A stretch of 13,536 bases of DNA, taken from positions 1 through 13,536 of IMG/VR virus record IMGVR_UViG_2671180571_000005, one strand, 5' to 3'. Positions 3,348-11,646 of the stretch are shown piece after piece. The notes beneath the pieces were generated by a model that made no database searches, was not told where the DNA came from, and saw only the letters and a list, made by a program, of their open reading frames with translations. The DNA comes from a virus (Duplodnaviria; Heunggongvirae; Uroviricota; Caudoviricetes). Both the position numbers and the translations under genes were made by a program. Positions within the stretch are counted from its first letter, which is position 1, and every line of letters begins with the position of its first letter.

Positions 3348-3402
3348 GGTATGCACTCCGTTTTATTGGTCGTGCTACCACCAGAGTTGCGAATCTCTTT
3401 AT

Positions 3403-3482
3403 TGGTGGTAGCCCAGGCGGGGTTCGCAATACCGGTAAACGAAGAAACCGGCCCGACCGAAGTCAGCCCCACCTGAGCCACC
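3403..3482 (-). ncRNA. Candidate C4/CI/cA-type antisense immunity RNA (tRNA-like, 3' ...ACCACCA)
   Basis: On the minus strand the 5' end GGUGGCUCAGG (3482-3472) pairs with the 3' end CCUGGGCUACC (two G-U pairs), giving an acceptor-like stem ending ACCACCA. Internal UUCG-tetraloop hairpin CUGAC-UUCG-GUCGG and CCGGU-N10-ACCGG stem. Two segments (AUUGCGAA at 3430-3423, GCUACCACCA at 3412-3403) are complementary to repeated targets upstream (3552-3565) and downstream (3374-3395) on the same strand. Ends are approximate; folded by eye. Confidence 0.4.
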
Positions 3483-3513
3483 ATAATTCGGATATGCGCA
3501 GGTCTATACACAC

Positions 3514-3536
3514 AAAAAAACACGCTGGCGCGTGTT
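3514..3536 (-). terminator. Rho-independent terminator-like hairpin in the leader of the icd-like operon
   Basis: Minus strand reads AACACGC-GCCA-GCGUGUU followed by a run of U (plus-strand A-run 3514-3520). Sits between the upstream target repeat and the candidate RNA; could be the regulated attenuator or the terminator of the lipoprotein transcript. Confidence 0.4.
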
Positions 3537-3727
3537 GTGCGCTTCGTTTTGCCAGGATTGCGAAGTCCCGACTGCGGGATTTACCGCAGCGAGGTGACTT
3601 TACCTCCAAAACGACGCACACGTCAATAATTTGCAAAGACATTTTACCCCGTGACCAGTCACGGGGACAGGTGTTTTTATAGTTTGCTTGAACAAACGAT
3701 CAGAACATGAACAATGTTATTGTTCCG

Positions 3728-5358: not shown

Positions 5359-5550
5359 TTACTCCCCGTTCACCGAAAATTCACGATAGAAACGTTTCCA
5401 CATACGATAAGTCTGCGCAAATTGTTCACCACGAAACATCGCCTTCCTGGCCTTCATGTTTTCCTTGTGAGACTTTCGGTCTATGAACCAAAACCATTGC
5501 TGGAACACACAAAGCAAGAGACACAAAGATAATATCCACTCATTACCCAT
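5359..5550 (-). CDS. Small hypothetical membrane protein (63 aa)
   Basis: I place the start at the internal ATG (5550) just upstream of the repA stop rather than the track's 102-aa extension, which overlaps repA by about 125 bp. Product MGNEWILSLCLLLCVFQQWFWFIDRK... has one hydrophobic helix. Weak SD. Fills the gap between repA and the 108-aa gene exactly. Confidence 0.35.
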   Translation of the reverse strand: MGNEWILSLCLLLCVFQQWFWFIDRKSHKENMKARKAMFRGEQFAQTYRMWKRFYREFSVNGE

Positions 5551-8500
5551 AGAAAGCGCCCTGCTCTTCGTAGCTGCATGAGCTATTCCCCGTAATGTAT
5601 TCACGTAACCGCCGCAGCTCATTGCTGGAAAGGTGATCCATGAACTCTGTGAGGTACAGGGATGCAAACGTCATAGCTATGCTGGCTGATGACCATGATG
5701 ACATAGTGGCCAACTCCTCACTGGAAAGCGCACTCATCGCCCAGGACTCAGGTACAGCCACTGGCAACACGGCCAAAGCCTCAGAAATTACTGAATGAGG
5801 GGCGTTTTGAACCTGCTCGTTTGTGGATCGCGTTTTATCATCCATATATATATTGAGATCCAAATCGCGATCCATTTCGATGGCTGTCTTCTCGGCTTTA
5901 CGCGTTTTTAGGGTTAGGCCATCTTTCTGACGCTGAACAAGAATATCCAGCATAAATGCCGCTGATTCAGGCTCAACAAAACGCAAGGTTGGACGCTTAT
6001 CGCCGTCTCTGCCGCGACGTTTACCTGTTTTAAGGCCAAGAGAGTCGCAAATGTTTTTAAACAACGCTTCCGGCACTTTAGGCTTCCCTTTTGGCGTCAT
6101 AAAACCACCAATGTGCAGAACGTTATTCAACAGGTCACGGCGTTCGGCTGTCATGAGGTTATCTCGAGCGAATTTGAGACGCTCCTGAGTCGCCTCGCCG
6201 GTCATAGTCTCAGGGTTGATACCGCAGTCGATAAAGTACTGCCGGAGAGTTGCTGATTTAAGCGCATAGAAACCGCGCGCCCCGACTTCAACAGTAGGAG
6301 TAGCTTTTACCTTGTGATCGATTATTCCAGGGAATTTAGTTTTAAAGACATCATCAGCCTGCTCGCGAGTCATCGCGGTCACTACAAAATATTGCCACTG
6401 TCCCGCCTGACGGTATGCGTAGGTAAAATTGATGGCTGCTTCTTCCCGGTCGTAACGACGAGCTGTTACCTCATCTAAAAGCATTGTTTCATAGCGGCGA
6501 ACTTTGTCTCGAGCACCATCGAAATAGAATTTCAGCGTGCCTTCTTCAACCGGTAGTTTCAGTTCGTTCTCAATATCCCAGCGGACAAGTTTTGCTTGTT
6601 CTTCAAGCGTCAGCGCGCGTTTTTTTAGCAGTTCTTCACGCTCTGATTCTTGTGGAGTTTCTGTATTGAGATGCAGATCCAGTGTCTGTTCCCACACAAT
6701 ATCCCGCGCTTCTTTACGCAGATCTTTACCGATATCATTCGCAGCATAATCGGTGGCCAGCGGCGATACCTTATAACCGTCGCTGTGCATGATGCAGATC
6801 ATGTTGCTGGCGTAGTCGTTACGCGCAGACGCTTCAATTGCGGCTGCTTTAATTTTCATCCTGGTAAAGTCGGTATTGGCCACCCCCATTGATATACGGT
6901 CGCCATCGAAAACGACATCCGTCAGTTCACCGTTCATGCCTGCGGTAGCAAGCAATGCCTGGGCGAATGCTCGTTCTATTTTTTGCGGGTCAGTTTCACG
7001 TTTTGCGCGAGCTTTATCAAAGCCGATAATAAATTCTTTTGCTGTACGGTCGCGGCGTAGCATTTGCACTGCGTCGCTGGGTACAACTTCACCACAGAAC
7101 ATGCCGAAATGACGGTCAAAATGTTTTTGCTCAATCGACACACCGGATGAAATAGACGGGCTATAAATCAGGCCGTCGTATTTTTTGACCATCTTTTTCG
7201 GTTGATTGGTAAATGCTTCAACTTCTGGCTCTGGTTTGTTTTTCTGGTTTACACACAGAAATTTCTTACCAGGAAAATGCATTCTCAGGGTGGCGGTCAC
7301 ATCTTCTGCAAAGGTGGAGCTGTCGGTGGCCAACATGATTTTTTCGCCATTCGATACAGCTTTCACCACCTCGGTCATAATGCGATCTTTTTCTGTATAA
7401 AAAACCCGGATTGGCTCACCTGTTTCGCGGTTGCGAACATCAACAGGTAATTCAATTACGTGGATCTGCAGCCATGCCGGTAAACCTAGTTCTTCACGGC
7501 GTTTCATAGCCAGTTCAGCCAGGTCAACCAGCAGATCGTTCGCATCAGCATCCACCATTATTGGGTGTTGTTCCGTTCTGGCCAGCGCGTCAATTAACGT
7601 ATTGAATACAGCCACCGGGTTTTCCATAGCCCGACCGGAAAGAACGGCACGTAGCCCTTGCGTGGCCTCGTCAAAGCCAAAATAGTCGTGCTGGCGCATC
7701 AATGGTTGCCAGCAGTTTTTAACAATCGAGTTTATGCAGATGGTCAGTTTACTGGCGTATGGAGCCATTTCCTGATAGCCAGGGTCCTGATAGTGCAGGA
7801 TATCGGCTTTTACACCTTTTCCTTCTGTCATCATTTCCCACAGGCCACCAATAAGGGAAACACGGTGAGCAACAGAGATACCACGTTCTGAGCTATGCAT
7901 TAAAGGTCGTAACAATCCAGTAGATTTGCCGGAACCCATACCAGCACGAACGATGACTATCCCCTGTAGTGATTGCACATACTTCAGGACGTCATCGGTC
8001 ATTACCGAAGTTTCAAAACGCTTATAGGTGATATGTTGAGGACGTTTATTGGGATCAGTTATTCGTTCGCTGAATGAGCGCGGAGCCTGGGCAATACGGC
8101 ACTTTTTATTCAGGCGACGGGCAATGTGGTCTTTTACCGTAGCGCGATAGATATTTTCCAGCCCAATTTCACGCAGGACGATGCAGAACATGTTAAATAA
8201 GTCTGACGGACTGTTAGGAACCGGACAGGTTAGCATGCCAATATCCACTGCTCTCAGCAGCTCTTTGGCAAAAGTACGACGGTTATCCCGCTTAATTGTC
8301 TTCAGGCGGTTGAGCGTCAGAGATAGCAAATCAGTGCCAGTTTTCAGGCGGTTTGCAGTTGCAAACAGTTGACGTGCTGTTTCACGAAGTCCACGTAGTT
8401 TGTGCAGGTCGTTGAAGTCACTGCACTCCATTTGCGGATCGTCTTCAAAAGTTGGATAGACGCAGCGGACATCGTTGAATTTCGATAAGATTTCATAGCC

Positions 8501-9538
8501 AGTCCGCAGGCCGGTATTCCCTTTTCCTTCTGTAGCTGATTTCCGGTCATTATCCAGTGCGCAGGTGATTTTTGCCGCCGGGTACATGTTTACCAGTTGT
8601 TCCACAACATGAACCATGTTGTTAGCGGATACAGCGACAACCACAGCGTCAAAGCGTTTATCTTTTTTCGTGGCAAGCCAGATGGATGCACCAGTAGCAA
8701 AACCTTCTGTAACAGCGATGTTTTGCGCCCCTTTCAGCTCACCGATAACAAAGCAGGCACCGACGAAATCGCCGCTGGTTACGGCACTGGTCTGGTATTT
8801 TCCACCTTGTTTGTCGATTCGCTGCCAACCAACAATACGACCATCGTAACGACCGTCCAGGTGAGCCAGAGGGATAGCCATATACGTGGTTGGCCCCCTG
8901 CTCCATTTTGCGCTGTCGTGACTGGTCACGCGACGCACATCACACGAATTAAAAACGTCACGAATACCTTTTTTAATCGCATATGGCCATGAGCCGTCTT
9001 CTGCAGGAGCATGTTCCCAAGCACTGTGGAATGCCAGCCATCCCAGCAAACGTTCATGGTCCATTTGGTTGTTTTTCAGGTCATTAATTCGTTTTTGTTC
9101 TTCACGGCGACGACGTGCTTCGGCCTGACGTTCTATTCTTGCCCGTTCTTCTTCCGGTTGTGCGACCACGGTCGCATTATTCCGTTGTTGCTCACGGCGA
9201 TATTCAGAAAACAGGAAGGAGAAACCGCTCCATGAGCCAGCATCGCTGCCTTTATGGACGAAGTTAATGAACGGGTAATCAATCCCTTTGCTGTGTTCCA
9301 GCCGGGAGTAAATTTCTACGCGTCCTTTGAGGCTCTTTTCGAGAGCTTCTGGGGATGTTTTATTGTATGAAGAGTAACGCTCAACACCCCCGCGAGGGTT
9401 GAGTTGGATGTTGTCGGAACAGGCAGACCAGTTGATACCAGCCATCTGTGCCAGCTCGGTTAGTTCATCCCGTGCTGCTTCAATTAGCGAGAACGGATCG
9501 CTGCCAAAGCGATCCGCATAGAAATCGTTTAATGTCAT
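5543..9538 (-). CDS. repA: Replication protein RepA (multidomain primase-helicase, N15 RepA / P4 alpha type)
   Basis: 1331-aa ORF. Primase-like EG(F/Y)ATG motif (VTEGFATGASIW) in the N-terminal half; Walker A GMGSGKST and Walker B-like FGFDEATQ in the central helicase region. Size and position (between telN/immA and cB) match N15 repA (about 1324 aa, as I recall). Confidence 0.85.
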   Translation of the reverse strand: MTLNDFYADRFGSDPFSLIEAARDELTELAQMAGINWSACSDNIQLNPRGGVERYSSYNKTSPEALEKSLKGRVEIYSRLEHSKGIDYPFINFVHKGSDAGSWSGFSFLFSEYRREQQRNNATVVAQPEEERARIERQAEARRRREEQKRINDLKNNQMDHERLLGWLAFHSAWEHAPAEDGSWPYAIKKGIRDVFNSCDVRRVTSHDSAKWSRGPTTYMAIPLAHLDGRYDGRIVGWQRIDKQGGKYQTSAVTSGDFVGACFVIGELKGAQNIAVTEGFATGASIWLATKKDKRFDAVVVAVSANNMVHVVEQLVNMYPAAKITCALDNDRKSATEGKGNTGLRTGYEILSKFNDVRCVYPTFEDDPQMECSDFNDLHKLRGLRETARQLFATANRLKTGTDLLSLTLNRLKTIKRDNRRTFAKELLRAVDIGMLTCPVPNSPSDLFNMFCIVLREIGLENIYRATVKDHIARRLNKKCRIAQAPRSFSERITDPNKRPQHITYKRFETSVMTDDVLKYVQSLQGIVIVRAGMGSGKSTGLLRPLMHSSERGISVAHRVSLIGGLWEMMTEGKGVKADILHYQDPGYQEMAPYASKLTICINSIVKNCWQPLMRQHDYFGFDEATQGLRAVLSGRAMENPVAVFNTLIDALARTEQHPIMVDADANDLLVDLAELAMKRREELGLPAWLQIHVIELPVDVRNRETGEPIRVFYTEKDRIMTEVVKAVSNGEKIMLATDSSTFAEDVTATLRMHFPGKKFLCVNQKNKPEPEVEAFTNQPKKMVKKYDGLIYSPSISSGVSIEQKHFDRHFGMFCGEVVPSDAVQMLRRDRTAKEFIIGFDKARAKRETDPQKIERAFAQALLATAGMNGELTDVVFDGDRISMGVANTDFTRMKIKAAAIEASARNDYASNMICIMHSDGYKVSPLATDYAANDIGKDLRKEARDIVWEQTLDLHLNTETPQESEREELLKKRALTLEEQAKLVRWDIENELKLPVEEGTLKFYFDGARDKVRRYETMLLDEVTARRYDREEAAINFTYAYRQAGQWQYFVVTAMTREQADDVFKTKFPGIIDHKVKATPTVEVGARGFYALKSATLRQYFIDCGINPETMTGEATQERLKFARDNLMTAERRDLLNNVLHIGGFMTPKGKPKVPEALFKNICDSLGLKTGKRRGRDGDKRPTLRFVEPESAAFMLDILVQRQKDGLTLKTRKAEKTAIEMDRDLDLNIYMDDKTRSTNEQVQNAPHSVISEALAVLPVAVPESWAMSALSSEELATMSSWSSASIAMTFASLYLTEFMDHLSSNELRRLREYITGNSSCSYEEQGAFYG
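5800..5910. other. Candidate intragenic replication origin near the 3' end of repA
   Basis: Three copies of GCGTTTT (5802, 5830, 5902), alternating AT run CATATATATATT (about 5843-5854) and three GATC sites within 47 bp (5826, 5857, 5869), about 300 bp from the repA stop. N15 ori is reported to lie inside the 3' part of repA (from memory). Confidence 0.3.
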
Positions 9539-9589
9539 TTTTTAGCCATTCCATGCGAATTATGTTTTTTCGGGTTGAAAAAATCCGCA

Positions 9590-9652
9590 GGAGCAGCCAC
9601 AATAAACGCATCTTGAATTGACGGAATCCGTCGCGTTATTGTGGCTGCTTCC
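9590..9652. repeat. Long imperfect inverted repeat in the repA upstream region
   Basis: Arm 1 ggagcagccacaataaacgc (9590-9609) and arm 2 gcgttattgtggctgcttcc (9633-9652); perfect 13-bp core gcagccacaataa / ttattgtggctgc; 23-bp spacer. Confidence 0.6.
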
Positions 9653-9660
9653 TGAAAAGG

Positions 9661-9689
9661 ACCCGAGTTTGCCGACTCGGGTTTTTTTT
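9661..9689 (+). terminator. Rho-independent terminator, strongest on + strand (opposite to repA and cB)
   Basis: acccgagt (9661-9668) / actcgggt (9675-9682), 6-nt loop, followed by T8 on the + strand. On the minus strand the tail is only CCUUUUUC, so it may also weakly terminate the cB transcript. Confidence 0.6.
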
Positions 9690-9783
9690 CGTCTTTTTTC
9701 TGCTGCTGTAACCTGAGTCAACCCACAGAACATATGCCCTGCATTAAACCAGATTTACAGCAAACAATAAACCCCGTATTAAG

Positions 9784-10380
9784 TCATCTACCCTCAACCA
9801 TGAATGATTTGATCGTTCCGACTATTTGGTGAACAAATTCAAGATCGCTTTTCCTGAAGATAGCGCGTTGTGAATTTGTTCCGTCCAGATAGTAATTTTC
9901 ATCATCAAAACGGGCCAGGCGCTGGATGGTGATATTTCCTGCAGTATCACGAACCAGAACATCCTCGCCGGGGACCAGTTCCAGCGCAGAATCGACCAGG
10001 AGAAAATCGCCAGGCTGATAGTTTCCCTGCGCCAGATTGCTGATAGTTAACGCATAAACAGTATTGCGCTGGCTGATGAATGGCAGGAATCGCTCAGTAT
10101 TTGGAACCTGTCCTGGCTTCCACTCTTCATCAGGTCCACTTTCAGTTGTGCCAATAACAGGAATGCGATCAGGGTCATATTCTGTCCCATACAGCACCCA
10201 ATGCACTGGCTTGCGTAAGCATTTAGCCAGGGCAATACCTATCTCCAGTGACGGCATTACGTCGCCACGTTCTAAGTTTTGGACGCCTGCAATAGAGATA
10301 TCGACAGCCTCAGCAACTTCTCGCAACGTCAGCTTCATCTCTAAACGGCGTGCTTTCAGTCGTTCGCCTCGTGTTTTCAT
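9784..10380 (-). CDS. cB: Prophage repressor, lambda CI-like (N15 CB-type): N-terminal HTH plus S24 peptidase-like C-terminal domain
   Basis: 198-aa ORF. N-terminal HTH (LTLREVAEAVDISIAGVQNLERG); C-terminal region PGDFLLVD...GEDVLVRD...ITIQRL resembles the LexA/CI S24 fold. Divergent from cro with operator-like palindromes between them. Confidence 0.8.
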   Translation of the reverse strand: MKTRGERLKARRLEMKLTLREVAEAVDISIAGVQNLERGDVMPSLEIGIALAKCLRKPVHWVLYGTEYDPDRIPVIGTTESGPDEEWKPGQVPNTERFLPFISQRNTVYALTISNLAQGNYQPGDFLLVDSALELVPGEDVLVRDTAGNITIQRLARFDDENYYLDGTNSQRAIFRKSDLEFVHQIVGTIKSFMVEGR

Positions 10381-11393: not shown

Positions 11394-11646
11394 ACAAGTT
11401 ATGTTCAGGAAACCGTCGAAGCCAGAATTAAGATATTCAGGGGTAAGAAATGAATATGTTATCTGGTGTCCAACTTGTGGTTACAGGACACGACCAGATA
11501 GTAATAAGCAGTCTGTAATTGCCGATTGGTATTTATCAAATCAGCCAGGTAATAAGCATATAGAAAATCTTTGGATTAAGCGTTACTTGGAAATCAGAGA
11601 GGGTGCGACCGTGGTCGCACAAGAAAATGAAAATAACGCCATTTAA
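11326..11646 (+). CDS. Hypothetical small protein with CxC / CxxC cysteine pairs; start uncertain
   Basis: Track ORF of 106 aa overlapping the Q-like gene end. Alternative starts: GTG 11344 (SD GGAG 7 nt upstream) or ATG 11401 (no SD). Contains FCLC and CPTCG, a possible small zinc-binding motif. Confidence 0.4.
   Translation: MRRRSAVKSSNAIGQEVPFCLCKQVMFRKPSKPELRYSGVRNEYVIWCPTCGYRTRPDSNKQSVIADWYLSNQPGNKHIENLWIKRYLEIREGATVVAQENENNAI

Follow-up and report, generated by a model that had tools for sequence, protein, structure and literature searches.

The stretch of DNA analyzed here, referred to as the window, is 13,536 nt long and by sequence comparison represents an N15-like linear phage-plasmid, with the region under study corresponding to its cB-repA intergenic region. 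The 500 bases around the repA leader share 99% identity with Escherichia phage PhiR46_1 and many E. coli plasmids, and ~82% identity with phage N15, phiKO2, and some 180 Klebsiella plasmids; 214 plasmid records were matched by the leader. Both flanking genes, repA and a repressor gene of the cB/cI type, lie on the - strand, as an earlier note on this DNA had claimed, and the features found between and around them are collected in Table 1. In the N15 record (GenBank U45242.1), the CB operators OL1 and OL2 overlap the repA promoter PL, and previous work has established that CB binds OL1 and OL2 and lowers copy number (PMC4997575, PMC4488713), with CB binding in the OL region confined to the part in which OL1 and OL2 lie (PMC4997575). 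An N15-derived vector without CB control rises from a copy number of ~5 to only ~50 (PMC2847241), and since the loss of CB has just this effect, there would appear to be room for a second brake on replication.

Table 1. Features of the cB-repA intergenic region and its flanking genes in the window
Feature	Position	Strand	Description
repA	5543-9538	-	1331-codon ORF; N15-type RepA, annotated 'CyRepA1 family' or gp37
repA translation initiation region (TIR)	9539-9565	-	AAUUCGCAUGGAAUGGCUAAAAAAUG; Shine-Dalgarno-like GGAAUGG; start codon 9538-9536
Pinc-type antisense promoter (candidate)	9575-9603	+	-35 TTGAAA 9575-9580, 17-nt spacer, -10 CACAAT 9598-9603
Invariant arm of long hairpin	9588-9610	-	3' arm in repA mRNA, GCGUUUAUUGUGGCUGCUCCUGC; holds complement of Pinc -10; proposed 'released arm'
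Hypervariable apical loop	9611-9630		mRNA hairpin loop, corresponding to antisense RNA 5' end
Variable arm of long hairpin	9631-9652	-	5' arm in repA mRNA; part of antisense target
Predicted antisense RNA, ~80 nt	9610-9689	+	Predicted from promoter and terminator positions; start 7 nt past -10, end in T8
Intrinsic terminator of antisense RNA	9662-9689	+	Stem CCCGAGT 9662-9668 / ACTCGGG 9675-9681, loop 9669-9674, T8 9682-9689
repA promoter PL (putative)	within 9733-9772	-	-10 TTTAAT 9749-9744, -35 TTTATT 9772-9767; placed by homology to N15
Two operator-like T-A-N10-T-A sites (putative)	~9733-9748, ~9756-9771	-	Placed by homology to N15
cB/cI-type prophage repressor	9784-10380	-	198-codon ORF

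Several smaller features of these genes can be recorded alongside. An out-of-frame AUG is present at 9554-9556 (-), 16 nt upstream of the repA AUG and inside the initiation region GCAUGGAAUGGCUAAAAAAUG, and it is conserved across the N15 group (in N15 itself, L001 ~34-36). The 3' part of the repressor ORF contains a perfect 11-nt inverted repeat, GAACAAATTCA / TGAATTTGTTC, at 9831-9841 / 9871-9881 with a 29-nt spacer. The palindrome GTGCGACCACGGTCGCAT, annotated in phiKO2 as a 'putative plasmid partitioning site', occurs in the window at 9160-9177, within repA, and at 11603-11620; this amounts to 3 matches where 0.01 would be expected, two of them, at 11603-11620, being one palindrome read on both strands. 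A centromere site of N15 has likewise been located within repA (PMC2847241).

The + strand of the intergenic region carries a candidate promoter followed by an intrinsic terminator, both of which had been pointed out in the earlier note. The promoter, TTGAAA-17-CACAAT, agrees with the consensus at 9 of 12 positions and is the sole exact match to this string in the window. By consensus alone such a site is not above chance, with 2 sites in 2.3 kb where 2.8 are expected, and its weight therefore comes from invariance in relatives rather than from the consensus match: both hexamers are unchanged in 26 distinct N15-like leaders. The site is where the note had placed it. The terminator, with its stem and T8 tail, also lies at the position claimed; a terminator scan reports a + strand site at 9654-9689, and the fold of 9604-9697 shows the terminator hairpin. 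When the same hairpin is read on the - strand, it is followed by only UCCUUUUC and would make a weak sense-direction terminator. The RNA predicted from these two elements would be antisense to the repA leader from -72 to -151. A search of 9480-9800 against Rfam gave 0 matches at the gathering score, and permissive thresholds returned generic hairpin matches only. Two coding possibilities were also considered and set aside: the frames of a small ORF in the + strand RNA are not conserved on inspection, and a 57-codon ORF at 9560-9733 (-), which runs across the whole repA leader, probably does not encode a leader peptide, being absent or frame-shifted in many relatives.

The homologous sites in the immB region of N15 are labeled in U45242.1 as 'Pinc; promoter of putative antisense RNA' (-35 and -10), and the same record labels a 'putative terminator of RNA antisense to repA transcript' as well as a 'putative terminator of repA leader transcript'. 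In the phiKO2 record, the homologous hairpin is annotated as a putative bidirectional terminator. U45242.1 was reportedly deposited with Lobocka et al. 1996. The antisense element is one that has been annotated in N15 since 1996, still as putative, and that is rediscovered here; given this match to the existing annotation, the element itself is not novel. We found no experimental test of the N15 antisense RNA in the accessible literature, outside of which the original N15 papers lie.

Ahead of the terminator is an imperfect inverted repeat, again in agreement with the earlier note, which consists of a perfect 14-nt core (9592-9605 / 9636-9649) extended to ~9588-9610 / 9631-9652 with one bulged base per arm. 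Folding of 9585-9697 yields -57.6 kcal/mol (z = -8.1), a stability reached by 0 of 200 shuffles. The -10 hexamer sits within the left arm of the repeat, so that a + strand transcript starting at ~9610 would run through the loop and right arm into the terminator but lack the left arm; the long hairpin can accordingly fold only in the repA leader transcribed from the - strand. The asymmetry between G.U and C.A pairs pointed to the - strand for the long hairpin in N15 alone, but across 30 variants the mean energies were -32.7 (+) vs -33.8 (-), with 12 vs 9 wobbles, too close to assign the hairpin to a strand. RNAalifold applied to MAFFT alignments found no useful covariation within the N15 group on either strand, as indels misalign the variable arm while the other arm is invariant. 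In the repA mRNA, the loop at 9611-9630 is proposed to be the site of first contact with the antisense RNA and the determinant of its specificity, and hence of incompatibility.

For an assessment of conservation, leaders were gathered from phage, plasmid, viral-contig, and metagenome records, to which a scan of genome contigs added a single locus, and invariant columns were counted among 22 distinct relatives that had been retrieved without anchoring on the tested block. The segment from 9566 to 9610, comprising the -35, spacer, -10, and left arm, is invariant in 42 of 45 columns, and the terminator segment (9653-9697) in 34 of 46. The remaining, non-terminator body of the RNA, that is the loop and right arm (9611-9652), is invariant in just 8 of 49 columns and contains indels. 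For comparison, repA retains 151 of 200 first and second codon positions and 16 of 100 third positions. The promoter side is therefore constrained more tightly than protein-coding positions, and the first ~40 nt of the RNA drift at the rate of third codon positions. Despite its 30 distinct versions, the variable part keeps the long hairpin in 30 of 30, at -23 to -40 kcal/mol; in the variable arm, 19-21 of 23 positions still match the fixed arm by Watson-Crick pairing, small bulges are placed differently in different relatives, and it is the loop, 20-25 nt long in all 30 variants, that is truly hypervariable. In a more diverged locus (L156, RepA identity 58%), the hairpin has changed in a compensatory way with respect to the N15 group (GCCAC/GUGGC to GCCAG/CUGGC, and CAGGAG/CUCCUG to CAGGAA/UUCCUG), and the -10, CAGAAT, stays promoter-like.

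This pattern bears directly on whether the repeat serves, as DNA, to bind a dimeric protein, an alternative that the earlier note had left standing and for which RepA acting on its own expression, the CB repressor, or SopB at a centromere would be candidates. A long palindrome adjoining a promoter would be in keeping with such a role, and N15-type plasmids do have dispersed palindromic centromere sites, but here substitutions and 1-3-nt insertions, in varied places, are confined to one arm, the other being invariant, and the spacer is hypervariable in both sequence and length. Fixation of one arm along with variation of the other is a misfit with a site of two-fold symmetry, which would keep both half-sites. 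In addition, the repeat differs in sequence from the centromere-type palindrome GTGCGACCACGGTCGCAT, which lies elsewhere (9160-9177 and 11603-11620), and the homologues of the CB operators are ~80 bp away (~9733-9771). The repeat, examined as a palindromic operator or centromere site, did not combine two conserved half-sites with a consensus match, and we consider a protein-binding role very improbable.

To place the element in a wider context, an alignment of the RepA N-terminus from the window, PY54, P840, VP882, and phiHAP-1 was used to fetch 79 loci from viral contigs, and the upstream regions of these 79 loci were grouped into 19 lineages that share <75% identity and that cannot be counted as wholly independent of one another. 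With a minimum stem length of 7 pairs, all 19 lineages, PY54, VP882, and phiHAP-1 included, have a terminator upstream of repA in the antisense orientation and 7 of 19 have one in the sense orientation, compared to 0.034 per strand in shuffled sequences. Raising the minimum to 9 pairs leaves 16 of 19 lineages with an antisense-oriented terminator and 1 of 19 with a sense-oriented one. A repressor-like ORF precedes repA, and is co-directional with it, in 18 of 19 lineages, and an antisense-oriented terminator cannot serve a gene so oriented. Antisense promoters were sought between the terminator and repA as TTxxxx, 16-18 nt, xAxxxT with at least 8 of 12 matches; all of the 18 lineages examined contain such a site, where chance would provide a mean of 0.41 in each (product 3e-9). 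The antisense RNAs predicted in these 18 lineages measure 69-171 nt. In 17 of the 18, the -10 falls in the 3' (descending) arm of a predicted hairpin of the sense leader, and the hexamers vary while remaining promoter-like (CACAAT, CAGAAT, TACAAT, TAAAAT, TATCAT, TACACT, TATACT, and others); the predicted antisense start site lies in an unpaired stretch in 13 of 18. This layout, recurring across lineages, is the strongest evidence presented here that the antisense transcript would be a selected feature and not a chance match.

Two other observations were made on these loci. In the marine telomere phages VP882 (L086 ~1135-1165) and phiHAP-1 (L119 ~1125-1160), 3-4 closely spaced GTACA/TGTACA repeats lie between the leader hairpin and the repA start; they look like iterons or operators, and the N15 group lacks them. 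In several IMG/VR contigs the repA leader occurs twice, for the most part in opposing orientations (L009/L010, L036/L066, L039/L069, L045, L058/L062, and L068/L076), which may represent head-to-head replicative dimers of a hairpin-ended plasmid or assembly artefacts.

The same cross-lineage counts can be set against the proposal that there is no trans-acting RNA and that the hairpins serve sense transcripts only. The hairpin at 9662-9681 would then terminate the cB mRNA and attenuate transcripts from PL, the long hairpin would act in cis within the repA leader on stability, RNase III processing, or pausing, and + strand transcription would matter just through collision with transcription from PL. 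This would account for the second label of the terminator hairpin in the N15 record, as a terminator of the repA leader transcript, and for the partial U-run that follows the hairpin on the - strand, and PL and Pinc are indeed convergent, with start sites ~130 bp apart. It does not, however, agree with the strong bias of the longer stems toward the antisense orientation, nor with PY54, VP882, and phiHAP-1, in which the leader terminator hairpin has no sense-direction U-tract, the one sense-direction match of PY54 being a separate small hairpin beside the ribosome-binding site. It also leaves unexplained both the conservation of an antisense promoter-like site whose -10 falls in the hairpin arm and the lineage-specific complementarity between that arm and the TIR described below. 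For these reasons, we regard a role confined to the sense transcripts as improbable.

If an antisense RNA is made, its complementarity to positions -72 to -151 means that it cannot directly cover the ribosome-binding site. When the leader was refolded with the antisense target blocked, the freed arm, GCGUUUAUUGUGGCUGCUCCUGCGGAUU, was predicted to pair with the repA initiation region, AAUUCGCAUGGAAUGGCU...AUG, the anti-TIR bases of the released arm being GGCUGCUCC. The strength of this pairing was evaluated as the duplex between the 32 nt immediately 3' of the segment that the antisense RNA covers and the region from -20 to +3. For the window, the duplex has an energy of -17.0 kcal/mol compared to a mean of -8.8 for coding windows (p = 0.003; p = 0.013 against shuffles), and Fisher combination over the 18 lineages gives 1.7e-6 vs coding windows and 1.8e-5 vs shuffles. 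Cognate arm-TIR pairs are stronger than non-cognate ones by a mean of -3.7 kcal/mol, the difference being negative in 25 of 30 (Wilcoxon p = 3e-5, with the sequences non-independent); 5 of the 18 lineages have no cognate advantage. Individual loci provide more specific examples. In L165, the 9-mer GGGCGAAAC occurs both at the base of the 5' arm and in the initiation region, and in L170-L173 the 5' arm and the TIR both contain CUGGU[U/C], with C in both in L172 and U in both in the other three; opposite this variable site, the 3' arm has G in L172 and L173 and A in L171. A match between the 3' arm and repA codons 2-4 was not kept as a separate signal, since on inspection N15 has another coding sequence at this place, although the match recurs within the arm-TIR helix. 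Partition functions predict that Shine-Dalgarno accessibility would fall upon antisense binding from 0.47 to 0.28 in the window and from 0.24 to 0.21 in phiHAP-1, a change that is in the expected direction but modest, and practically nil in phiHAP-1, and some free-state folds already pair the Shine-Dalgarno sequence with CCUUUU located 5' of the hairpin.

A freed 3' arm could also act at the level of transcription, in the manner of pT181 and pIP501, by allowing a small terminator to form and stop transcription before repA. A candidate for such a terminator is present at 9577-9595 (-), consisting of CUGC-UCCU-GCGG followed by AUUUUUU, with an invariant U6 directly after the hairpin, and several other lineages (L083, L158, L165, and L169) have a small sense-direction hairpin and U-run 20-45 nt upstream of repA. 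The small stem in the window, however, comprises 4 pairs at -4.7 kcal/mol, its U6 tract can also be explained by complementarity to the A-run of the Pinc -35 region, and the small hairpin of the PY54-like leaders does not overlap the released arm and would form with or without the antisense RNA. Attenuation driven by the antisense RNA consequently seems unlikely to us. The earlier note had alternatively suggested an attenuator in the repA mRNA; its hairpin is indeed predicted to form in that mRNA, but it is best read as the target of the antisense RNA rather than as a free-standing attenuator.

From the sequence elements, their conservation, and their complementarities, we infer with a probability of roughly 70% that the region specifies a constitutive ~80-nt antisense RNA acting on the repA leader, and that invasion by this RNA would free an arm that blocks RepA translation. 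The inverted repeat in the repA mRNA would fold into a long bulged hairpin, and the unstructured 5' end of the antisense RNA would pair with its large apical loop. Pairing would then extend into the 5' arm of the hairpin and displace the invariant 3' arm, which could in turn pair with the ribosome-binding region and start codon of repA and reduce RepA translation. Such control would operate alongside the known control of the repA promoter by the CB repressor. As the dose of antisense RNA would track plasmid copy number, we propose that it provides negative feedback on replication, with restriction of plasmid copy number as its most likely function. Which related plasmids inhibit one another, and are thus incompatible, would be decided by the hypervariable loop. 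The suggestion in the earlier note of an ~80-nt countertranscript to the repA leader in plasmid copy-number control is in this way supported by the N15 annotation, by conservation, and by the cross-lineage layout, with the RNA itself being predicted.

Whether the telomere (hairpin-ended linear) phage-plasmids, from N15 and PY54 to VP882 and phiHAP-1, all employ one conserved RNA device, with the -10 in the 3' arm of the leader hairpin, strand displacement, and the loop as a private address, is a more tentative matter, and we would put this generalization at somewhat less than an even chance. Neither the family-wide design nor the strand-displacement logic was found in any accessible paper, and the family-wide architecture, together with the strand displacement and masking of the ribosome site that the sequences suggest, may be new. 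Conceptually, this is a standard plasmid strategy and would not surprise a specialist, antisense control of repA being ordinary for plasmid biology. N15-like phage-plasmids are common in E. coli and Klebsiella, and N15 replicons underlie linear cloning vectors (PMC2847241). A probable second, RNA-based brake on RepA beside CB bears on copy-number control, on the compatibility of co-resident plasmids, and on vector design.

The closest known counterpart is Pinc of N15, which occupies the homologous cB-repA position. Its -35 and -10 hexamers and their spacing are identical to those of the window, as is the 23-nt promoter-side arm of the hairpin, and its terminator core is nearly identical. The loop and variable arm, which make up the first ~40 nt of the predicted RNA, differ strongly from those of the window, making cross-reaction between N15 and the window doubtful; the operators and repressor are also of another specificity. 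Elsewhere in the window, a C4 antisense RNA (RF01695, 82 bits) at 3401-3488 (-) and isrK (RF01394, 53 bits) at 3515-3590 (-) were both detected above the gathering score, and this is presumably the secondary-immunity, antirepressor-control RNA region of an N15-like phage. The C4 RNA resembles the predicted repA-leader RNA in being a small phage-encoded antisense regulator of the same genome, but it belongs to another locus, targets an antirepressor operon, and represents a curated Rfam family.

Among better-known systems, CopA/CopT of R1, RNAI of ColE2, and RNA-OUT/RNA-IN of IS10 involve bulged target stem-loops in which a single-stranded end or loop makes the first contact, and small changes to the recognition region create new specificities. 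Unlike in these systems, the predicted antisense RNA of the window does not contain the complementary full stem-loop, as it would start in the loop, and there is no leader peptide, the 57-codon leader ORF not being conserved. Countertranscript-driven attenuation operates in pT181, pIP501, and pAMbeta1, and these share with the window a short antisense RNA with its own terminator on the rep leader and alternative structures of that leader, whereas the window has no convincing antisense-dependent terminator. Closer in its logic is RNAI of the staphylococcal plasmid pSK41, upon whose action the rep mRNA reportedly refolds and the ribosome-binding site is sequestered, as Kwong, Skurray and Firth are said to have described in J Bacteriol 2006. 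In pSK41, as proposed for the window, the antisense RNA binds upstream of the ribosome-binding site and its proposed effect is exerted via refolding of the leader; the sequences, hosts, and Rep proteins of the two are unrelated, and the switch in the window is predicted from complementarity statistics only. At the level of sequence, the cB-repA region has the features by which plasmid countertranscripts are recognized, namely an antisense promoter and an intrinsic terminator suited to an RNA of 50-150 nt, and a predicted target stem-loop that exposes single-stranded nucleotides.
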